Translations under genes and position numbers: made by a program
Assembly (NCBI GenBank): GCA_050250435.1
Contig: JBFWOR010000005.1
Coordinates: forward strand, 170,300-234,299
Direction of reading: 5' to 3'
Length of the DNA: 64,000 nucleotides
Source: Pirellulales bacterium
GTDB lineage: Bacteria; Planctomycetota; Planctomycetia; Pirellulales; PALSA-1355
Notes under the pieces: generated by a model
Seen by the model: the letters and a program-made list of their open reading frames with translations, nothing else
Database searches by the model: none
Told to the model about the DNA's origin: nothing
Part shown: positions 3,489 through 59,941 of the stretch, one piece after another
How the letters are laid out: the number at the start of each line of letters is the position of its first letter
How positions within the stretch are numbered: the stretch's first letter is position 1

Positions 3489-4694
3489 ATGAGCGTTGCA
3501 CCCCTCGAACATCGTTGGGCCACTCCGCCGGTGCCGCCGGCCTTTGTCTCCACACAGCCGACGCCCGTTCCGTTGCTCGACGTGTCGCGTCAGTATCACG
3601 CGATTCGCGATGACGTGGCCAAGGCGTTGGCGCGGGTGTGCGACTCCGGCCGTTTTATCCTCGGGCCGGATTGTGAGGAGCTCGAACGCCGACTGGCCGA
3701 ATACTGCCAGGTGTCCCACGCCGTGGGATGCGCCTCGGGCAGTGACGCGCTGGTGTTGGCGCTCATGGCGCTTGGCGTCGGACCGGGCGACGAAGTGCTC
3801 ATGCCCAGCTACACGTTTTTCGCCACCGCCAGTGCGGCCTGGCGGTTGGGCGCCAAGCCGGTGTTCGTTGACATCGACCCGGTGACGTACAACATCGATC
3901 CCAACAAGGTCGAAGTGCTAATCTCGCCGGCCACCAAGGCGATCCTGCCGGTGCACTTGTACGGCCAGTGTGCCGACATGCGGGCGCTGGAAACGATTGC
4001 TCGCACGCACAAGGTGCCGCTGGTGGAAGATGCCTGCCAGGCCATAGGCGCGGAATTCGCCGGCCGTCGGGCGGGCAGCTGCAGCGCGATCGGCTGTTTC
4101 AGCTTCTATCCCACGAAGAATCTGGGCGGCTACGGCGACGGCGGATTGTTGACCACGCACGACGCCGCCCTGGCAGAGCAGCTGCGCCTGTTGCGTGGCC
4201 ACGGCATGCAGCCGCGTTACTATCACCAGGTGGTGGGCGTGAACAGCCGGCTCGATTCGCTGCAGGCGGCCGTGCTCAACGTCAAGCTTCCTCACCTCGA
4301 TCGTTGGACCACCGACCGGCAGACGAATGCTCAGCGCTACCACGAGCTATTTGCCGCGAACCGGCTGGAGCACTTGCTGGGCCTGCCGCACACGGCCCCG
4401 GGCCGCCGCCACGTGTGGAATCAATACATCATCCGCGTGCCGGACGGACGGCGCGACGCGTTGCGCGCGTATCTGGCGGAACGCAAAATCGGCACCGAGA
4501 TTTACTATCCCGTGCCGCTGCACTTGCAGGCCTGTTTTGCCGCGCTGGGCTACGAGCAGGGCAGCCTGCCGGAATCGGAGCGGGCGGCGCACGAAACGCT
4601 GGCGCTGCCAATCTTCCCCGAGCTGACCGCGGCCGAACAGCAAGTGGTGGTGCGCGAGATTGCCGCCTATTGGCACGGCCCACGTCTGGCCTAA
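3489..4694 (+). CDS. DegT/DnrJ/EryC1/StrS family PLP-dependent sugar aminotransferase
   Basis: The ORF 3441..4694 contains GPDCEELERRLAEYCQVSHAVGCASGSDALVLALMALGVGPGDEVLMPSYTFFATASA and FYPTKNLGGYGDGG (PLP-Lys region). The ATG at 3489 (MSVAPLEH) is preferred over the alternative start at 3441, but the start is uncertain. Confidence 0.85.
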   Translation: MSVAPLEHRWATPPVPPAFVSTQPTPVPLLDVSRQYHAIRDDVAKALARVCDSGRFILGPDCEELERRLAEYCQVSHAVGCASGSDALVLALMALGVGPGDEVLMPSYTFFATASAAWRLGAKPVFVDIDPVTYNIDPNKVEVLISPATKAILPVHLYGQCADMRALETIARTHKVPLVEDACQAIGAEFAGRRAGSCSAIGCFSFYPTKNLGGYGDGGLLTTHDAALAEQLRLLRGHGMQPRYYHQVVGVNSRLDSLQAAVLNVKLPHLDRWTTDRQTNAQRYHELFAANRLEHLLGLPHTAPGRRHVWNQYIIRVPDGRRDALRAYLAERKIGTEIYYPVPLHLQACFAALGYEQGSLPESERAAHETLALPIFPELTAAEQQVVVREIAAYWHGPRLA

Positions 4695-9615: not shown

Positions 9616-9924
9616 TCAATAGAACTTGTCGCGCTGGTCGACCAACACCGAGTCAACGTAGGCGGCCACCGGATAGCTGCCGAATTGCTTTTTGTGCACG
9701 TACTCGAAAATGGCGTCGGCCACCTCGTGATGTGCCAACACTTCGATACGGATGCGCGAACGGCCGGTATAGGGATCTTCCAGGGTTTCGTGGCGCCCCT
9801 TGCCCGCGCAGTAGTTGCAGGTGTATCCCTTGGCCCCCAGGGACAGAACGTGCTCGAGCAGCGTCTTTTCCAGGACGGTGTCGGCAATGATGACGAGGCG
9901 ACTGATTTCCACGAGCTCTGGCAT
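9616..9924 (-). CDS. sbtB: PII-like signalling protein, SbtB-type
   Basis: The 102-aa ORF lies immediately downstream of sbtA. RLVIIADTVLEKTLLEHVLSLGAKGYTCNYCAGKGRHE aligns by eye with cyanobacterial SbtB ([38 protein letters not shown], recalled from memory). Confidence 0.85.
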   Translation of the reverse strand: MPELVEISRLVIIADTVLEKTLLEHVLSLGAKGYTCNYCAGKGRHETLEDPYTGRSRIRIEVLAHHEVADAIFEYVHKKQFGSYPVAAYVDSVLVDQRDKFY

Positions 9925-11379: not shown

Positions 11380-11408
11380 AGTATACGTGGCGTGGCAAAA
11401 GTTGACTA
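11380..11408 (-). promoter_or_regulatory. Candidate sigma-70-type promoter for sbtA-sbtB (-35 TAGTCA, 17-nt spacer, -10 TATACT)
   Basis: Read on the minus strand: TAGTCA (11408-11403), a 17-nt spacer, then TATACT (11385-11380). It lies 11 nt downstream of a TTAC-N6-GTAA palindrome. Planctomycete promoter rules are poorly known. Confidence 0.25.
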
Positions 11409-11419
11409 CCGTCGTTCGA

Positions 11420-11433
11420 TTACAAGTCTGTAA
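11420..11433. promoter_or_regulatory. Palindromic operator candidate TTACAAGTCTGTAA (TTAC-N6-GTAA)
   Basis: This is a perfect inverted repeat about 245 nt upstream of the sbtA start. It has the same half-sites and spacing as the four sites at 13467-13563. Confidence 0.4.
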
Positions 11434-11605
11434 CCGCTTGTAGCAGCTCGCAACGGCGCCGCGCAACGGGCTTGATATTCGGCGCCGGCTGCCGCGCGCT
11501 AAAGCAACTTTGGACGAGCACGCTGCTGCGATGGAGAGCATCCGTCAAGCGTGCGCGATGCGGACGGACGGCACAGCCGTGCCGTCCGATCTCCGCAGTC
11601 AGCCA

Positions 11606-13330
11606 CTACACGTCCGTTGTCACCGGCATTCTCGTGCGCCCATTGGCGACACGCACGGCGGTGCTGTCGGACGACTTGGGCTGCATGCGCTCGAGACCGT
11701 TGATTTGTAGCTGCGGCTTGCCTGGCTGCGAGGAATTGAATTCGTCGAGAAAGTGCAGCAAGTTCTCGCACGTGGTGTGGTCGACGATCGTCACGTTCGG
11801 CGAAATCTGCAAGCTGACGCTCTTGGCGTCGGGGGGGACTCTGTCCATCTCGCGAATCAGGTGAAACAAGTTGAAGCACACGAGCGGCCGTTCGACGTAC
11901 AAATCGTATACGCCTTCCGCGTAGTCGCGACGGCCGATCGGATTGCGCACCAGATCGGCCAGGCGGACCAGCAAGCCCGGTTTCGGTCGCGTCGTGCCGC
12001 TGCCGACCGGCAGGTTGTACCACAGGCACAGCGCGAGCTTGATGCCCACGCCCACGGCGATCCCCAGCAACAAGTCGGTGGAGACCGTGACGAACACGGT
12101 GGAGGCAAAAATGAGCAGTTGCTCCTTGCCGATCTTGGCCATGTGCAGCCAGACCTTGGGGCGACACAGCTTGTAGCCCACGTATACCAGGATCGAGGCC
12201 AGCACGGCCTTGGGCACCATGTTCATCACGTTGCGCCCGGCGAACAGGAAGGTCAACAAGAAGCAGGCGTTATAGAAGTTCGCCCATTGCGTGCGACCGC
12301 CGCCGAGAATATTGGCGGTGCTTTTGACGATGCCGGGAATGATCGTCAGGCCACCCAGCAAGCTCGAGGCCACGTTCGAGGCGCCCATTGCGGTCAGCGT
12401 GCGGTCGGGATCGCTCTTGCGGCGGAACGGGTCGATCTTGTCCACGGCCGCGATCGTCGCCAGCGATTCCGTGCCGTCAATCAACACCAACGTGACGACG
12501 ACGACGGTCAACGGCAACCACAGACTGTGGTCGCTCAAGACGCCGCTAAAATCCGGCAGCACGATGCCGTTGGCCAAGGGCGATTCAGGAACGTGAATTA
12601 GGTTCGCCGGCGAGATCGTCAGCAGCAGTTGCGCAACGGCCGTGCCGATCATGAAAGCCCACACCGGCGGCGGCATGAGCTTGAACATCCGCCCCGGCAC
12701 GGCAGACAGCGCGAAAATGAACGCCGTTGCGCCGATGCCCAACCAGAATGTGTTCGGATCGAGGGCGCTCAGTTTGGACGGCACTTCACCCAGGATTTCC
12801 CAAAACTCGTGCCCTTCAAACGGCACGCCGAAGAACAGCGGAATCTGCTTGACGATGATCAATAGTCCGATCGCGGCCAGCATGCCTTCAATCGCTGCTG
12901 CCGGAAAGATGGCACTCAAACGGGCCACCTTGAATCGCGCGAGAATAAGTTGCAACACGCCGGCGATGCAAATCGCCACGAGCACGCGCGGATAGCCGCG
13001 GGCCATGTCGCCAGCGCCCAGCGCCACGATGCCGGCATACAAGGCCGGCGCCAGTCCGGCCGCGGGGCCGCTGATGGTCACATAGGAGCCGCCCAAAAAA
13101 GGCAGCAAAAAGCCGGCGATGATCGCCGACATGATGCCGCACACCGGCGGCGCGCCGGAGGTGATGGCAATCCCCATCGAGAAGGGCAGCGAAATCATGG
13201 CCACCATGAATCCGCTGCGCAAATCGTGCCGCCAGTGCTTCAGGCCGGCCAGCCCGTTCTGGGGCTTTGCTTTTTGGCCGCTGCTCGTCGCCGAGTGTGC
13301 GCTGCTGATCATGGTCGGACTATCCCTCAT
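11606..13330 (-). CDS. SulP family inorganic anion transporter with C-terminal STAS domain
   Basis: 574-aa ORF with LRSGFMVAMISLPFSMGIAITSGAPPVCGIMSAIIAGFLLPFLGGSYVTISGPAAG and a C-terminal soluble STAS-like region. Confidence 0.9.
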   Translation of the reverse strand: MRDSPTMISSAHSATSSGQKAKPQNGLAGLKHWRHDLRSGFMVAMISLPFSMGIAITSGAPPVCGIMSAIIAGFLLPFLGGSYVTISGPAAGLAPALYAGIVALGAGDMARGYPRVLVAICIAGVLQLILARFKVARLSAIFPAAAIEGMLAAIGLLIIVKQIPLFFGVPFEGHEFWEILGEVPSKLSALDPNTFWLGIGATAFIFALSAVPGRMFKLMPPPVWAFMIGTAVAQLLLTISPANLIHVPESPLANGIVLPDFSGVLSDHSLWLPLTVVVVTLVLIDGTESLATIAAVDKIDPFRRKSDPDRTLTAMGASNVASSLLGGLTIIPGIVKSTANILGGGRTQWANFYNACFLLTFLFAGRNVMNMVPKAVLASILVYVGYKLCRPKVWLHMAKIGKEQLLIFASTVFVTVSTDLLLGIAVGVGIKLALCLWYNLPVGSGTTRPKPGLLVRLADLVRNPIGRRDYAEGVYDLYVERPLVCFNLFHLIREMDRVPPDAKSVSLQISPNVTIVDHTTCENLLHFLDEFNSSQPGKPQLQINGLERMQPKSSDSTAVRVANGRTRMPVTTDV

Positions 13331-13466
13331 CCGCCCTTAGACTCCGGAACGACGAAACTGTCCGGCGGGCGCCGTCGCGCCTTGCCGAGCGCGCGATGCC
13401 TTCGCACCGCACGCAGTCCCTAGCGCGAATATAGAAGCGGATCGACGCTTCGGCGACGATCAATTC

Positions 13467-13563
13467 GTTACAAATCATTAAGGCCGTCGACAGCTTACAA
13501 ACCCGTAAGGAGCCTTGCTTACGAAGCCGTAAGGTTGACGCAGCAGCCTTACAAATCCGTTTG
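13467..13563. promoter_or_regulatory. Array of four TTAC-N6-GTAA-type palindromes (operator candidates) in the divergent sulP / response-regulator intergenic region
   Basis: The copies are GTTACAAATCATTAAG (13467-13482), CTTACAAACCCGTAAG (13494-13509), CTTACGAAGCCGTAAG (13518-13533) and CTTACAAATCCGTTTG (13548-13563). The two central copies are perfect palindromes and the outer two are degenerate. Confidence 0.5.
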
Positions 13564-13610
13564 AATGCGCAGCGGGCACGGTGCGCGACATTCGTCCGCC
13601 TGACATTCAC

Positions 13611-13619
13611 TGATATAAT
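13611..13619 (+). promoter_or_regulatory. Candidate extended -10 promoter element TGaTATAAT for the two-component operon
   Basis: TGATATAAT was read at 13611-13619, about 85 nt upstream of ATG 13705. The -35 is only weak (TTCGTC at 13591-13596). Confidence 0.35.
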
Positions 13620-13704
13620 TCAGAAACGACCTGCCCTGCTCCGGCGGGGCCGTGGCACTTGTCGGTGCGAGCAGCGTCTGAGACGCACAAACCGGGAGTC
13701 CATC

Positions 13705-14394
13705 ATGCAGGCTTCGGCGACTATGGATCTATTGGTCATTGAAGACGATCAGGTAATCGGCAAATCGTTACGCAAGGGACTGCAAGAAGCCGGTCACGGA
13801 TGCGTGTGGGCCAAGGATGGCGAGCGCGGATTGGAGCTGGCCGAAGGTCAGCAGTTCGACGCCATCATTCTCGACCTGATGCTCCCCGGGCGCGCGGGAT
13901 TGGACGTGCTGCGCGAGCTGCGCACCAACGGCATTCATACGCCGGTGATTGCCCTGACGGCGCTGGGCTCAGTGGACGATCGTGTGTCCGGGCTGCAGGC
14001 CGGCGCCGACGACTACGTGGTCAAGCCTTTTGCGCTGGTGGAACTGATGGCCCGCGTCGAAGCCGTTTGCCGGCGCACGGCCAGCCGGCCTCCGGCCGTG
14101 GTGAAAGCCGGGCCGTTAACGCTCGATTTAGCGACGCGTCGCGTTACGCGGGACGACAAAGAGATCGATTTGACGCCCACGGAATTCAGCCTGCTGGAGC
14201 TCCTGATGCGCTATGCCGGCCAGGTCGTCACGCGCCGGATGCTCTGCGAGCACCTTTGGGAGACCGACTGGGAAGGCGCCACCAACGTGATTGAAGTTCA
14301 CATCAACCGGCTGCGCGGTAAACTGGATAAAGGGTACGATGAATCCGTGATCCAGACCGTGCGGGGCCGGGGCTATGCGCTTCGAGCAACTTAA
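13705..14394 (+). CDS. OmpR-family response regulator, heavy-metal (CusR/CopR)-like
   Basis: The ORF is 13561..14394, with the real start likely ATG 13705 (MQASATMDLLVIEDD). Receiver motifs are DAIILDLMLPG and GADDYVVKPF, followed by a winged-helix C-terminus (IQTVRGRGYALR). Confidence 0.9.
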   Translation: MQASATMDLLVIEDDQVIGKSLRKGLQEAGHGCVWAKDGERGLELAEGQQFDAIILDLMLPGRAGLDVLRELRTNGIHTPVIALTALGSVDDRVSGLQAGADDYVVKPFALVELMARVEAVCRRTASRPPAVVKAGPLTLDLATRRVTRDDKEIDLTPTEFSLLELLMRYAGQVVTRRMLCEHLWETDWEGATNVIEVHINRLRGKLDKGYDESVIQTVRGRGYALRAT

Positions 14395-18655: not shown

Positions 18656-21600
18656 TTAGCGGCGCTTGGTGTCTGAGGGGCGCCGCGTGATGTCTTGTGC
18701 CGGCGGCGCACAAAGGTAGGCGAACAGGTCGGCAATCTCTTCCAGCGTCAGCGTGTTCACCAGTCCCTCGGGCATGGCCGAGATCTTGGTCCGCGCCGAC
18801 TCTTCGATGTCGTCTTGCTTCAGCACGACTTTCTCGCCGCTGGCCTGCAGCACGGTCAGGGAGCCATCGGCGCCGGGCGCCACCATGCCGCTGTAGGTCT
18901 TGCCGTCCTTGGTCACGATGGTTTGCGTGGCGAACTGATCGGGAATAACCTGCGACGGAAACAAGATCGATTCCAGGATTTCTTTTTTCTGGAAACGCTT
19001 ACTGACGTTCGTCAAATCGGGACCAACCGTATCGCCGCGCTCGCCGTAGCGATGACACTTGATGCACTGGGCCTTCTCAAACAGTGCGGCGCCCCGCGCG
19101 GCGACTCCGCCCGTGGCCTGCGGCCCGGTAAGAAAGCTCAGCAGCTCGGAATAAGTCCAGTGATTCTGTTCGCTCTCGGCGGGCAACTTGGGCTCCGGCA
19201 AGTCGGGATACTTGGCCACAAACCACTGTTGCCAGGCGGCGATCGATTGTTGCCAGGGCAGATCGTCGCCACCCTGCTTTTCGCCGGTCCATTTTTCCAA
19301 TAACGCGACGGCGCGGCGGCTGCCGTTTTCGCGCAGCATCAAGCCCCGCAGGATGGTCTGGCGATACGCCTCGGCGTCGTCGGGCACGCGGTCCACTTGC
19401 GCCAACTTGCCCAACACTTCCTGCGCGGCGGCCCCTTCCACGATCGACAGTGACCGCACCAGGTAAGGCCAATTCTCGCCGTCGGGCGTTTGCGCGAGCC
19501 CCATGGCAATGGCCACGCGGCGATCGGGCTCTTCGTCGTAGAGTTCGCGCAAATAGGCCATGGCACCGGCATCTCCGCTGGCGCCCAGCACGGCGCAAAT
19601 GCCCACGCGCAGCTTCTTGGCCGCGTCGGTGTCGAGCTTCTTCACTTGCCGATCGAGCGCTTGAATCTGTTCCAAAGTTTCGGGCGACGGATGCTGCGGC
19701 AGCTTGGCCAACACACTCAACGCGGAGCTCGGCCATTTGACGCCGTCGGCCAGCACGACCTGGCATTCCTGTTCGTTGAACGTGGCAAAGAATTCGCGCG
19801 CCGCGTTTTCCACGTAGCCGGCAAAGCTATGGCCGCCTTCGACCGCTCGGGCCTCTTCATAGGCCTGTAACACCTGCAATTTGAGCGGCAAGGTCCAGCC
19901 GGCTTGTAGAAAGCGAGCATGCATCACCAGGTGCATTTTCTCGACGCTCGGCATTTCGCCGCGCAGCTGTTCCACCAGCCGTTCGGCGAACGTCGGATCT
20001 TGCAGGAAGACGAGCAATCGCACCAATTCGCGGTTCAATTGATGATCGCGCGAAGGGTACTCGCCGGCCAGCTGCTCGCGCAATTGCGGCACGTCGTCGC
20101 CCGTCAGCTTGCCTTGAATCAACGCCAACTGCATCACGCGCAAGAGCTGGATGAATTCGTCGTCCGTCAAATAGCCGCTCATCAGCGTGCGGCTGCGCTC
20201 CAGCACGTTCGTGGCCATTTTGCGATCGACGGGCGCGCTCAACAGCGCCGTTGCGCCGTTGACGAACGCTCTGGCCCGCTGCTCTTTCAGCACGGCATCG
20301 GCCCATTGCTCGCGGGGCAGTTGTTGCAGCGTGCGGCCGGCGGCCCAGGAAACATAGCGGTCGGGCGAGAACAACAAGGGCAACAATCGATCGGCATCGA
20401 CCGGCACCGCGCCCCGTACGATCGATTCGCACGCTGCGCGTTCCACCGCCAGGTCGGGATCAATTAACAAATCCGCCAGCCTGGCCTTCGTCGCGTCGTC
20501 GATGTGCAGACCCATCAGCCGCGCCGCCTTGGTGCGCAACAACGGCGATTTGTCGCGCGACATTTCGACCAGGAGTTCCGCGGAGGGGCTGGGCCCGTAG
20601 AGCTGCAGCAGCTCTAGAGCGCGCACGCGAACATGAGCAGGTGCCTTGGTATCCTTGGCCACCACAATGAGTTGCGGCCCCCACTTGTCGCCCAGCTGTT
20701 GTTTGACCAGCGCCACTTGCTGCCGTCCCCAGGCACTTTGGAGCTGCGGCTGGTTGAGGGCGGCATTGAGCCCTTGCCCGCGGTTCTTCATTTCTGGGGG
20801 GACTTTGCCATCCCACACGACGCGGTAGATGCCGCCTTCGGTATCGCGGCCGCCGGTGCAGAAATACAGCCAGCCGTCCGGGCCAACGGCGATGTCCGTC
20901 ACGTTCAGCGGCTGGCCTTCGACGAATACTTCGGCCGTGGCCCGGTACGTAGCGCCATGTTGCTTCGGGCGGACGCACAAAATGCGGCCGCGCGACCAGT
21001 CGCACACAAACAGCGTGTTGTGAAAACGGCGCGGATACATGAAGTGGTCGTACGACTCGATGCCGGCGGGCGAGCCGCGGCCCAGCTCCAACGTCGGCGG
21101 CAGGCTGTCGACGAAATATTTCGGCCATTTGGCCCAGCCGCTGCGCCAGCCGAACTCGGAGCCGGCGCTCACGTGTACCAGCCGCGTGGGCCGGTACCAC
21201 GACATGCCCATGTCCCACTCCATGTCGGAGTCGCAGGTGAACAGGTCGCCGGCCGCATTGAAGGCCAGGTCATACGGGTTCTGCAATCCGCCGGCAAACA
21301 GCTCCACGGCCGTGCCCGAGGTGTCCGTGCGGATGACCGTGCCGCCGGGCGCTTTGATGCCCACGGCATGGCCGCTGGCGTCTTCATAGCGCGGCGTGAT
21401 CAAATCGCCTTCGTAATAATCGTGGTACGGGCTGGCCTCGGCAAAGCTGTCGGCCACGTGCGAAAAGTTGCCAGCGATCATGTACAGCAGTCCGTCCGGC
21501 CCCAGGGCCAGTGCGTGCGGCCCGTGCTCGCGCATTTCGCCGGTGAACTTGAGCACCGTTTCGGTTTTATCGATGCGCCCGTCGTGATCTTCGTCGGCCA

Positions 21601-22477
21601 GGCGATACATGCCGGCCCCTTCGGGCCCTTCGCCAATCACGTACACCTTGCCGCTGATGGGCAGCAGGCCCTGACAGTTCTTCACCGTATCGCAATACGT
21701 CGATACGTTGTCGACCAGCCCGTCCTTGTCGTCATCTCGAATCACGACCAGCGGGCCGTTCTCGCGCGCCGCGATGATCTGGCCGAACTCGTCGAACGCC
21801 ATGCAAATCAGCGAGCCGGTATCCTTGGGATCGATGACCCACTCCACGTGGAACTCGGGAGTCACGCGAAAGCGGCCTTCGGCGCCGGCCACGGAAACTT
21901 CGTTGCCCCAGGGCAGCGTCGCGCCGAGCGCGCCAAAGCTGCGGGCCGACAGCCACTGGGTGTCGGCAAAGCGCGGCTTCTGCCACTGCGGAAAGTCTTT
22001 GAGCGCCGTCTTCCAACTCGCGTCGGTCGAGTGCTCGACGTGCGTATTGCCTTGCTCTTTGACCGCCACTCGGGCCACCAGTGCCGCGCTGCCGGTTGTG
22101 GAGTTCACCGCCTTGACGGCGATCGTGTTCTGGCCGACGACCAGCTGCTTGGTGATGTCGTAGACGTCGAGCGCTTTCCAATTCTTGCCGCTGCCGACGT
22201 GGTGGCCGTTCACATACAACTCATAGCTGTCGTCGCAGGCAATCTGAATGACGCCGTGTTCCGGCGCGCCCAGTGGAAACGACTTGCGAAAATAGCAAGT
22301 GCCTTCCGGCGCCAGCTCTTTTTCGTACGCGGGCGACCAGATCCATTCCGCTTCGCGTCCTAGCGCGCGCTTGGAAGTCAGCGCGGCGCAGGCGGCGATG
22401 CTCGCCGTCAACGCGATCGCACGCGCGCCGCGCCACCACCACGCTGTTGAACGGCACGCTGTCGGAAGGTTTCGCAT
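18656..22477 (-). CDS. PVC-type heme-binding CxxCH protein with 'membrane-bound dehydrogenase' domain and HEAT-like repeats
   Basis: The ORF is 18656..22612, with the start likely ATG 22477 (MRNLPTACRSTAWWWRGARAIALTASIAACAALTS). It has a C-terminal cytochrome-c motif CIKCHRYGERGDTVGPDL and ends ...LTLEEIADLFAYL. The architecture is typical of Pirellula/Verrucomicrobium giant proteins. Confidence 0.8.
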   Translation of the reverse strand: MRNLPTACRSTAWWWRGARAIALTASIAACAALTSKRALGREAEWIWSPAYEKELAPEGTCYFRKSFPLGAPEHGVIQIACDDSYELYVNGHHVGSGKNWKALDVYDITKQLVVGQNTIAVKAVNSTTGSAALVARVAVKEQGNTHVEHSTDASWKTALKDFPQWQKPRFADTQWLSARSFGALGATLPWGNEVSVAGAEGRFRVTPEFHVEWVIDPKDTGSLICMAFDEFGQIIAARENGPLVVIRDDDKDGLVDNVSTYCDTVKNCQGLLPISGKVYVIGEGPEGAGMYRLADEDHDGRIDKTETVLKFTGEMREHGPHALALGPDGLLYMIAGNFSHVADSFAEASPYHDYYEGDLITPRYEDASGHAVGIKAPGGTVIRTDTSGTAVELFAGGLQNPYDLAFNAAGDLFTCDSDMEWDMGMSWYRPTRLVHVSAGSEFGWRSGWAKWPKYFVDSLPPTLELGRGSPAGIESYDHFMYPRRFHNTLFVCDWSRGRILCVRPKQHGATYRATAEVFVEGQPLNVTDIAVGPDGWLYFCTGGRDTEGGIYRVVWDGKVPPEMKNRGQGLNAALNQPQLQSAWGRQQVALVKQQLGDKWGPQLIVVAKDTKAPAHVRVRALELLQLYGPSPSAELLVEMSRDKSPLLRTKAARLMGLHIDDATKARLADLLIDPDLAVERAACESIVRGAVPVDADRLLPLLFSPDRYVSWAAGRTLQQLPREQWADAVLKEQRARAFVNGATALLSAPVDRKMATNVLERSRTLMSGYLTDDEFIQLLRVMQLALIQGKLTGDDVPQLREQLAGEYPSRDHQLNRELVRLLVFLQDPTFAERLVEQLRGEMPSVEKMHLVMHARFLQAGWTLPLKLQVLQAYEEARAVEGGHSFAGYVENAAREFFATFNEQECQVVLADGVKWPSSALSVLAKLPQHPSPETLEQIQALDRQVKKLDTDAAKKLRVGICAVLGASGDAGAMAYLRELYDEEPDRRVAIAMGLAQTPDGENWPYLVRSLSIVEGAAAQEVLGKLAQVDRVPDDAEAYRQTILRGLMLRENGSRRAVALLEKWTGEKQGGDDLPWQQSIAAWQQWFVAKYPDLPEPKLPAESEQNHWTYSELLSFLTGPQATGGVAARGAALFEKAQCIKCHRYGERGDTVGPDLTNVSKRFQKKEILESILFPSQVIPDQFATQTIVTKDGKTYSGMVAPGADGSLTVLQASGEKVVLKQDDIEESARTKISAMPEGLVNTLTLEEIADLFAYLCAPPAQDITRRPSDTKRR

Positions 22478-22714
22478 AACCTCGCCTCGCAGGGAACGAA
22501 GTGGACGGACAAATGCGGCCACAAAAACGGGCCCGCAGCGCCGCCGGAACGTCAAATCAGGGGCCATAGAGTAGCGAGACCCCACAAAGGGCTCAACAGA
22601 GCTTCGGGGCATTTACGAAGCTCGTGCGCGACAGCACACGGCTGCTGGCATGCGACAACTGGCCCGGCAAGAACGCCGCAGGAAAGCCCGGGGGCGCGGA
22701 CGCGGCCGTGCCGA

Positions 22715-33620: not shown

Positions 33621-34107
33621 GCCGTCTGTCGGCGGCAGGATGCCAGCGCCTACCGACCGCGGCGAGCACTCCTGGTCGGCTACACCGGGCTGTGGTTTCG
33701 CAAGTGCCAGGCCGAGTTCTCGGGGGTACGACAACTCTATGGAGGGGTCCGGTGCCAGAGCGAACAGGCCAGGCAGGCCCCTGCTAGTGGCACCTTGCAG
33801 AATTGTTAGTATAATGCTGGCTGACACTTCTCGCGTGCGTTCCACCGCCCGCGATCCCCTCGGGGCTCGTGTGCGACTTCTCGATACGTGGCGGCAATCC
33901 TCCGGCTTTCGGCCGGTTTGAGCTTGTCGGACAGAGCGGGGCTGAAGGCAGCCGCAAGCCGCGGCTGACCTTCGTGAAGAGCGTTGTTGCCCTGATGCGT
34001 TACGCGTTGCCCGGCTGCCACTGCCGCGCGCCTTCCGCCGCCGCTACTGGTCTGCCGTCGACACGCGCCGCGTCCGTCAATTCACGCCGAGCTGACGAGG
34101 TGGAAGC

Positions 34108-59215: not shown

Positions 59216-59231
59216 CTCTCTCTCTCTCTCT
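59216..59231. repeat. (CT)8 dinucleotide microsatellite
   Basis: Read directly in the sequence. It is intergenic, between the thioesterase stop and the SDR start. Confidence 0.95.
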
Positions 59232-59298
59232 GCGCCCTCGGTGAACTCTGTGGTTCAATCGGTTCTTCGGCCTTCGTGCTCTTTGTGGCTGAGTGGTA

Positions 59299-59772
59299 TT
59301 ACGTTCCTGATCGTGGCGCCGTGGCCTCGATCTCGGCAATCCGCTGGCGCACGTGGTCTGGCAGCTTCGCCTTCACGTGATTTACGTAGTCGTAAATCAC
59401 CAGTTTCTGCTGGCCTTCGGCCGCGATGGCCTTGAGCTTGTGACTCACGATCACGGTGTTCATCAGGAACCGATCCTCCTCGATCTCACTGATCCGCGTG
59501 CCGATCGTCACGTCGTCGGGATACTCGAGCGGCTTGCGAAAGCGGCAGTCGGTCCACGACAGGATGGGCCCGATGCCGGTGGACCGCTGCTCCTTGCTGA
59601 AACCCATCTCGCGAAAGTATTTCAGCCGCGCGTGCTCCATGTAGCGAAAGTACACGACGTTGTTCACGTGGTGATTAGCGTCCATCTCGCCCCAGGCCAC
59701 GAGCGTCGTGACGATGACCGGATAGGGCGCCAACAACTGGGCGACCGCTGGATCTAGCGCAGCACGGTCCAC
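59299..59772 (-). CDS. Acyl-CoA thioesterase, hotdog fold (4HBT/YbgC-like)
   Basis: The ORF is 59299..59880 (TTG start), with GTG 59772 more plausible. It contains VAWGEMDANHHVNNVVYFRYMEHARLKYFREMG, which is typical of 4HBT. Confidence 0.75.
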   Translation of the reverse strand: MDRAALDPAVAQLLAPYPVIVTTLVAWGEMDANHHVNNVVYFRYMEHARLKYFREMGFSKEQRSTGIGPILSWTDCRFRKPLEYPDDVTIGTRISEIEEDRFLMNTVIVSHKLKAIAAEGQQKLVIYDYVNHVKAKLPDHVRQRIAEIEATAPRSGT

Positions 59773-59941
59773 GGAATTGCCACCCTCAGAGAGTCCGGAA
59801 GAAAATCGGATCGCGCGGGCCGCGGGACCGCAAAACTGCGCCGCGCCGCCGCACCTACCGTCCGTTCGGTAAGTTAACAAGATCTACGCTGGTTGCAAGA
59901 GGCGGTCGCGCGTGGCATTCGCTGAGAACGAACCGCGGCCC

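Follow-up and report, generated by a model that had tools for sequence, protein, structure and literature searches.

Conserved TTAC-N6-GTAA palindromes at predicted SbtA and SulP transporter promoters beside a CusR-like two-component operon of Pirellulales

In bacteria that do not photosynthesize, little is known about the regulation of bicarbonate or anion uptake by SbtA- and SulP-type carriers, whose cyanobacterial counterparts are under the control of LysR regulators and P-II proteins. A 64,000-nucleotide stretch of a Pirellulales genome (contig JBFWOR010000005.1, positions 170,300 to 234,299; the whole stretch is hereafter called the window) raises the question of what reads a cluster of four similar palindromes that lies between a sulP gene and a divergent operon for a response regulator and a sensor kinase. 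Here, we find that these palindromes are a conserved cis-element tied to the regulator locus. Overall, we favor the explanation, to which we assign a probability of about 70%, that they are operators of the CopR/CusR/AgrR type through which the adjacent regulator activates sulP and the neighboring sbtA-sbtB genes.

The palindromes occupy positions 13467 to 13563 of the 374-bp intergenic region between sulP and the regulator gene (13331-13704), the GC content of which is lowest (0.45 to 0.48) at 13430-13519. They are four copies of CTTACAAAnCCGTAAG in the same orientation, far more than chance predicts, starting at 13467, 13494, 13518 and 13548 with spacings of 27, 24 and 30 nt:

13467-13482, no strand assigned: box 1, GTTACAAATCATTAAG; core TTAC-N6-TTAA, with one core mismatch; weight-matrix score 18.4 bits
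13494-13509, no strand assigned: box 2, CTTACAAACCCGTAAG; exact core, the best match of the window; 24.4 bits
13518-13533, no strand assigned: box 3, CTTACGAAGCCGTAAG; exact core, followed by TTGACG; 18.0 bits
13548-13563, no strand assigned: box 4, CTTACAAATCCGTTTG; degenerate right half (GTTT), with two core mismatches; 14.7 bits

A first-pass annotation of this DNA had given the sequences, starts and spacings of the four 16-mers, the divergent gap with its GC-poor part, and an extended -10 element, TGATATAAT, at 13611-13619, all of which we recovered in the sequence. It had also called all four copies TTAC-N6-GTAA palindromes, a description that is exact for boxes 2 and 3 only and that boxes 1 and 4 miss by one and two core positions, respectively. 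A fifth site, which it had overlooked, sits upstream of sbtA-sbtB in the intergenic region between sulP and sbtA:

11419-11434 (core 11420-11433), no strand assigned: fifth box, ATTACAAGTCTGTAAC; exact core, in the same orientation as the array; 17.2 bits

The weight matrix behind these scores was trained on 27 sites from other loci, with no sites from the window. The consensus of these 27 sites is GATTACAATTCCGTAAGG, the inner part of which is asymmetric and conserved. Across 30 simulated windows, the highest matrix score averaged 11.2 and reached 18.0 at most. Simple word counts also separate the motif from background: exact TTAC-N6-GTAA occurs four times in the window (0.05 expected), and the 16-mer consensus CTTACAAANCCGTAAG, with three mismatches or fewer, also occurs four times (0.32 expected), every one of them inside the 97 bp of the array.

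Evidence that the element is conserved came from related loci. A protein search yielded about 120 regulator orthologs at 75 to 90% identity, from which seven long contigs were taken, and a metagenome scan with the C-terminal half of the regulator contributed 80 further loci, for about 90 related loci in all. Exact TTAC-N6-GTAA was found 26 times in the 42.6 kb upstream of regulator orthologs and twice in the other 348 kb (binomial p = 3e-23, uncorrected for relatedness). Conservation in orthologous intergenic regions, the check that the first-pass annotation had proposed, was thereby borne out. Both outliers in the 348 kb are themselves transporter promoters, namely the fifth box of the window (11420) and L132:4911, where a SulP gene comes after the kinase and the box, upstream of that gene, is inverted together with it. 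When all 4-N(0-12)-4 dyads were counted without bias over 58 upstream regions, TTAC-6-GTAA ranked first (20 of 58 regions), ahead of GC-rich background dyads. A separate contig scan with the full regulator listed matches at no more than 47% identity; these were unsuited to footprinting and served as a negative background, in which two exact motifs were detected in 852 kb, both in one verrucomicrobial locus.

Among the related loci, the box follows transporter genes. We tallied 40 nonredundant loci whose regulators are 61% identical or more and whose upstream sequence was long enough. A transporter adjoins the regulator-kinase pair in 15 of them, 13 with an exact box and the remaining two with a one-mismatch box, whereas exact boxes are present in 5 of the 25 loci without an adjacent transporter (13/15 versus 5/25, Fisher p = 5.5e-5). 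The pair is divergent from genes for SbtA and a P-II protein in L081, L082, L087, L109, L164 and L165; from SulP, sometimes as a SulP-STAS-P-II fusion, in L083 and L166; and from both SbtA plus P-II and SulP in the window and in L084/L167. In the window and in 15 of the 40 loci, the box thus stands beside its cognate regulator-kinase operon in a shared, divergent intergenic region. Its orientation relative to the transporter gene is fixed across loci, and the motif is kept at orthologous promoters, at a fixed spacing from the -10, over a range of 61 to 100% regulator identity. The number of boxes varies: L081, L082, L083, L165 and L166 have one, and two are found in L084/L167 (50 bp apart), in L164 (242 bp apart) and in L104 (one per promoter). 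The second box of L084, CTTACAAACGCGTAAG, is a near-copy of box 2 and is found in both of these closest loci, L084/L167. Because relatives carry one or two boxes, we regard the array of the window as a lineage-specific elaboration of a plan with one box per promoter. The five transporterless loci with a box hold it within 650 bp upstream of the regulator gene. In L100 and L163, and likewise for the second box of L104, it lies 39 to 40 nt upstream of a TAnAAT at the regulator promoter; in L160 and L162 it is again at the regulator gene, with unrelated neighbors.

The position of the boxes relative to predicted promoters was examined for three -10 elements:

13428-13433, minus strand: predicted sulP -10, TATATT (AATATA as read on the plus strand), in a conserved block; no -35
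11380-11385, minus strand: predicted sbtA-sbtB -10, TATACT (AGTATA on the plus strand), from the promoter scan and the sequence; weak -35-like TAGTCA at 11408-11403
13611-13619, plus strand: extended -10, TGATATAAT, of the regulator-kinase operon; a TAnAAT-type -10 occupies the equivalent spot in orthologous loci

Directly upstream of the last of these lies a direct repeat of GACATTC (13587-13593 and 13602-13608, 15 bp apart; 13587-13608 as a whole). TGACA resembles a CusR-box half-site, and the repeat is not kept in the closest locus, L084.

A consensus promoter scan recovered TAGTCA-17-TATACT at sbtA and no -35 at sulP. Box 1 is 34 nt from the sulP -10, and the fifth box is likewise 34 nt from the sbtA -10. 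This distance recurs: of 32 sites, 13, those proximal to a transporter, have the reverse complement of TATAYT at 34 to 36 nt, as part of a conserved block, GA(A/G)TATA(G/A). At the position equivalent to the fifth box, L167 has TTAA-N6-GTAA at 35 nt from AATATA. An alignment of four loci contains islands of invariant columns that coincide with the -10 and box 1. Given 34 to 36 nt between box and TATAYT, the transporter-proximal boxes would be centered near -53.5 if transcription starts about 7 nt past the -10; this is the predicted center of box 1, the box nearest the sulP promoter. For boxes 3 and 4, counted from the start predicted for the two-component operon, the centers would be near -100.5 and -70.5. 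At both sulP and sbtA, therefore, a good -10 with a weak or absent -35 lies downstream of a box, as judged from predicted starts. For box 1 and the sbtA box, activation is a better reading than repression. Since the -35 is weak or missing at both promoters, recruitment of RNA polymerase by the bound regulator is probable.

Which protein binds the boxes? The adjacent operon encodes two proteins:

13705-14394, plus strand: response regulator of the OmpR family, CusR/CopR-like clade; best model TIGR01387, 229.9 bits
14375-15826, plus strand: sensor histidine kinase with two transmembrane segments, a periplasmic domain of about 115 amino acids (residues ~46-160), and HAMP, HisKA and HATPase domains

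The regulator is 100% identical to a protein, P0001, of a Pirellulales metagenome-assembled genome; that match begins MDLL, and the conserved start of the regulator is probably at 13723. Of 98 models, TIGR01387 (CzcR/SilR/CopR/CusR) scored best, with PhoB next at 202.7 bits, and identity to Escherichia coli CusR is 44%. Footprinting and DAP-seq have shown that this heavy-metal clade binds inverted repeats, which is unusual for the OmpR family (PMC7380067, PMC11195947), and the published palindromes of AgrR, CusR, CopR and CzcR fit the palindromic copper boxes that the first-pass annotation had named for such regulators. The core and spacing of the window boxes match the published AgrR/CusR/CopR palindromes, ATKACA-N4-TGTMAT, and boxes 2 and 3 and the sbtA box have TKAC/GTMA cores 6 bp apart without a mismatch. 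This family precedent and the linkage of box and gene make the adjacent response regulator the best candidate by far, and it is most likely the protein that binds the boxes. The earlier idea of an operator array for a dimeric regulator, probably the adjacent CusR/CopR-like one, is thus supported by conservation, by published geometry and by the identity to CusR. Covariation between recognition helix and motif was uninformative because the helix, TNVIEVHINRLR, is invariant across all loci.

The genes predicted to be controlled lie on the other strand:

11606-13330, minus strand: sulP, a SulP-family anion transporter; Pfam Sulfate_transp, 163 bits
9989-11176, minus strand: sbtA-like gene of the Sbt_1 family; Pfam PF05982, 326 bits
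9616-9924, minus strand: sbtB-like P-II gene, 102 amino acids; Pfam P-II, 39.3 bits (cutoff 25)

The closest solved relative of the sulP product is the membrane domain of BicA (PDB 6ki1, E = 6e-23). The product falls below the cutoffs of the NCBIfam sulP and BicA models and, at 135 bits against a cutoff of 880 for BicA (NF050096), is not similar to BicA at the equivalog level. The sole PDB relative of the sbtA-like product is Synechocystis SbtA, over the full length (E = 2.7e-26), and the P-II product matches SbtB chains in the PDB (E of about 8e-7). The sbtA-like product thus has both homology to a characterized SbtA and an adjacent P-II-like SbtB partner. Since the P-II gene is directly downstream of the sbtA-like gene, a complete sbtA-sbtB pair stands beside the BicA-like sulP; the same 102-amino-acid gene is present in L081, L164 and L167. 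From their sequences, the SulP permease and SbtA/SbtB are putative importers of bicarbonate or another anion. Longer spurious open reading frames cover the 9616-9924 stretch in a mechanical list of reading frames. In L083 (3433-5418) and L166 (2714-4705), SulP is a fusion of 661 to 663 amino acids in which a weak STAS match is followed by a P-II domain at the C terminus, an arrangement that resembles an SbtB-like regulator joined to a SulP carrier.

In the mechanism that we propose, the kinase would phosphorylate the regulator, and the regulator dimer would bind the TTAC-N6-GTAA boxes. On box 1 and on the box at 11419-11434 it would recruit RNA polymerase and thereby switch on sulP and sbtA-sbtB. 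Boxes 2 to 4, which extend the array toward the extended -10 of the regulator, probably provide cooperative occupancy and positive autoregulation in this lineage. We hold this role with lower confidence because 20 of 25 transporterless loci are boxless and the spacings within the array are out of helical phase.

Several observations weigh against the proposed mechanism. Start sites were predicted from -10 hexamers alone. Both proteins score under the curated cutoffs of their best models: the regulator does not reach the 279.2 bits that mark the heavy-metal subfamily in TIGR01387, and the kinase, whose best NCBIfam model is TIGR01386 (CusS/CzcS), scores 245.5 bits against a cutoff of 292.55. 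Box 4 taken alone is not above chance, since its 14.7 bits compare with the mean maximum of 11.2 and the largest of 18.0 in simulated windows. Measured from center to center, the boxes are 27, 24 and 30 bp apart, none of which is an integral number of helical turns, and the inner part of the site, ACAAWTCY, shows a conserved asymmetry that one would not expect for a symmetric dimer. Across relatives, conservation is limited to one box at each promoter, and the four-box array may be partly redundant. That 20 of the 25 transporterless regulator loci lack an exact upstream box indicates that autoregulation is not general and that the box follows the transporter promoter more than the regulator gene. 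Finally, in a clade at 58 to 60% regulator identity, synteny is kept and the recognition helix is the same, yet the sites are only degenerate look-alikes. This clade comes from lake metagenomes (L135-L139, L145, L149, L154 and L158) with SulP/SbtA synteny and has forms such as TTGC-N6-GTCA and TTCC-N6-GCAA. A search there for a variant motif, by dyad counting and by eye, recovered only the degenerate forms.

The first competing explanation accepts the regulator as the binder but takes the pair to be a true sensor of metal (Cu, Ag or Zn) like CusRS or CzcRS, so that SulP and SbtA follow metal status; bicarbonate import when a zinc-dependent carbonic anhydrase is limited would be one example. 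The best family models of both proteins are those of the heavy-metal regulator and kinase subfamilies, although, as noted, neither protein reaches the curated cutoff. By BLASTP, the similarity of the kinase to CusS (34% identity) does not begin until the second transmembrane segment. The periplasmic sensor has no PDB relative by sequence or by profile and no sequence similarity to the sensors of CusS or CzcS. When an AlphaFold model of the domain (pLDDT 83) was searched with Foldseek, the sensor domains of CzcS (5gpo) and CusS (5ku5) ranked highest, but these matches are weak (E = 3e-4 to 7e-4, TM = 0.24 to 0.55, 14% identity), and generic PDC sensors follow close behind. The conserved periplasmic residues are mostly acidic, with one histidine (E47, D49, E58, E64 and H84), which could suit a metal; no Met, Cys or His other than H84 is conserved in the domain. 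Neither in the window nor in any fetched locus does a metal efflux, oxidase, chaperone or resistance gene adjoin the pair. Its neighbors are instead SbtA, P-II, SulP, a release factor and a PVC-type heme protein. We therefore consider a metal sensor unlikely. Automatic annotation of this clade as "copper-resistance CusR" is probably misleading, given the absence of linked metal genes.

Descent of the kinase from the heavy-metal kinase lineage is plausible all the same, and we suspect that inorganic carbon, pH or a cation is involved in the signal. More tentatively, and with more doubt than confidence, we suggest that the pair descends from the CusRS/CzcRS lineage and that, in Pirellulales, it has come to monitor the supply of inorganic carbon at the cell envelope (through bicarbonate, CO2, pH or the coupling cation) and to switch on the SbtA/SbtB and BicA-like SulP importers directly, through cop-box-type operators.

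A second alternative replaces the binder: a LysR-type regulator encoded elsewhere may recognize the sites as TTA-N8-TAA, as CmpR, NdhR and RbcR do with theirs at cyanobacterial carbon-uptake genes. The resemblance, which the first-pass annotation had raised, holds formally, in that TTAC-N6-GTAA contains the CmpR consensus TTA-N7/8-TAA (PMC13249358), and the target genes are homologs of sbtA and bicA. Synteny lends it no support. Core positions C4 and G11 are as fixed as TTA and TAA in the 27 training sites and are mostly kept in one-mismatch sites, and it is the AgrR/CusR box, not the loose LysR consensus, that needs them. The box stays beside the regulator in transporterless loci. The Pfam gene lists of the seven orthologous loci (5 to 6 kb on each side; the 64-kb window was not screened whole) contain no LysR gene, nor any other transcription factor gene. 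A LysR-type binder thus appears quite improbable. Much the same low standing falls to some other unlinked dimeric factor, of the CRP/FNR type or otherwise, whose sites would be near the two-component genes by coincidence or by coregulation. Such a factor would account for a box that tracks transporter promoters over regulator genes (13/15 versus 5/25) and for the inverted form of the sites, given that direct repeats are the usual OmpR-family targets. However, the sole regulator gene consistently linked to the box is the response regulator, whose clade is documented on this very inverted repeat, and boxes are present at regulator promoters without a transporter in L100, L163, L160 and L162. Finally, we give almost no credence to nonregulatory repeat DNA (duplicated in tandem, able to form hairpins or left behind by a mobile element), suggested by four similar units in 97 bp and fewer copies in relatives, because on the array region Tandem Repeats Finder reported no repeat, the RNA fold was ordinary (z = -1.5) and Rfam gave no significant match (a single chance-level one, E = 0.31, within sulP), while the motif is conserved at orthologous promoters with fixed -10 spacing and nearly absent elsewhere in 348 kb.

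Two further matches in the window were judged to be chance occurrences. TTACGTAGTCGTAA, an exact TTAC-N6-GTAA at 59382-59395, lies within a minus-strand coding frame (59299-59880), and there is no sign of a promoter context. TACTAACAATTCTGCAAGGT (33792-33811, minus strand; 16.2 bits) has two core mismatches and is inside the 5' end of the scpA frame; it abuts a TATAAT, and a gene for a pentapeptide-repeat protein lies downstream. At ~59216-59232, in an apparently intergenic stretch, there is a (CT)n microsatellite with about 8 to 9 units.

Other observations concern the relatives and the wider gene neighborhood. In L086 (30-1424), a DDE_5 transposase takes the place of the transporter gene of the sister loci; the regulator there is 85% identical, and no upstream box was found. 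In L100 (1-3530), the pair is divergent from a gene for a protein with HTH_17 and PTS_EIIA_2 domains, which is followed by HyfB-like (Proton_antipo_M) and NuoH-like genes, and the TAAGAT -10 of the pair is preceded, at 40 nt, by an exact box; this locus may represent a different regulon member or a paralog. DabAB, a third carbon-uptake system, was suspected there from Proton_antipo_M and dropped, as the NuoH-like next gene identifies a cluster of the Hyf/complex I type. In the verrucomicrobial locus L021 (regulator identity 45%), a promoter-like element of about 45 bp occurs twice in near-identical form (3790-3830 and 4030-4070), each copy with a perfect ATTACA-N4-TGTAAT between TTGCCA and TAATTA. 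The box there overlaps the core promoter, a repressor-like position, and the repeats lie downstream of the regulator-kinase pair and upstream of a 568-amino-acid reading frame with no Pfam match. In the window, a gene for a 1,318-amino-acid DUF7133/HEAT/cytochrome c protein of the PVC-type heme-binding kind (18656-22612, minus strand) follows the kinase gene and a HAD gene; because this DUF7133-type family also flanks the kinase in L083, L164 and L167, local gene order is kept over more than 10 kb in the lineage.

If the pair does monitor the supply of inorganic carbon, as tentatively suggested above, inorganic-carbon uptake in a non-photosynthetic bacterium would be under two-component control, apart from the LysR/P-II logic of cyanobacteria, and the boxes would define a small regulon. 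The arrangement recurs across many planctomycete metagenome contigs. The locus also supplies a defined motif for the operator, a pair of promoters predicted to depend on an activator, and a kinase that is a candidate sensor, which together make the question approachable by experiment. A literature search, limited in reach and no proof of novelty, returned no paper on two-component control of SbtA or SulP genes in planctomycetes or other heterotrophs, and the term "two-component" is absent from a 2026 review of cyanobacterial carbon-concentrating mechanisms (PMC13249358).

Among known systems, the closest counterpart is AgrR of Cupriavidus metallidurans, the box of which is ATKACANNNNTGTMAT, a 6-4-6 inverted repeat with extra flanking half-sites (PMC7380067). 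Written as ATTACA-N4-(T/C)GTAAT, it equals the TTAC-N6-GTAA of the window, identical in core and spacing, and mutation of its symmetric C and G abolishes activation (PMC7380067). The two systems also share a heavy-metal-clade OmpR regulator, promoters with a good -10 and a poor -35, flanking half-sites, a better conserved promoter-proximal half, and a location in divergent intergenic regions and at the promoter of the regulator itself. They differ in position, with AgrR boxes centered at about -43.5 and those of the window predicted near -53.5, about one helical turn further upstream; in their targets, which are silver and copper resistance genes for AgrR and, by prediction, SulP and SbtA/SbtB genes here; and in that AgrR binding is experimental, whereas binding in the window is inferred.

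Similar palindromes are known from Pseudomonas and E. coli. CusR, CopR and CzcR of Pseudomonas share one common palindrome, printed as ATTCATnnATGTAAT, with ATTACATnnATAGCCT as its mutant form; individual sites are CTGACAn5GTAAT for CopR, GAAACn6GTAAT for CzcR and TGACAAnnTTGTCA for E. coli CusR (PMC11195947). The CusR box of E. coli, AAAATGACAAnnTTGTCATTTT, was read directly from the sequence between cusR and cusC (L168). As in the window, a 4-6-4 repeat, TKAC-N6-GTMA, lies between the regulator-kinase genes and a divergent target operon. In those loci, however, a single perfect palindrome serves both directions, whereas the window has a four-box array and a remote fifth box; the second core base is T in the window and G in E. 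coli; and the targets are metal efflux or oxidase genes, unlike those of the window, whose sensor is without sequence similarity to CusS. The cyanobacterial LysR sites (ATAG-N8-CTAT for NdhR/CcmR, TTA-N7/8-TAA for CmpR and ATTA(G/A)-N5-(C/T)TAAT for RbcR) resemble the boxes as AT-rich dyads upstream of the first gene that control sbtA/sbtB and bicA homologs (PMC13249358), but they are read by cytoplasmic, metabolite-sensing tetramers rather than by a membrane kinase and an OmpR-type regulator. Taken together, these comparisons indicate that (i) the cis-element is an ordinary member of the well-described CopR/CusR/AgrR operator class and (ii) what is new is its predicted wiring, in an apparently undescribed regulon, to SbtA/SbtB and a BicA-like SulP instead of metal genes, together with a divergent sensor domain.

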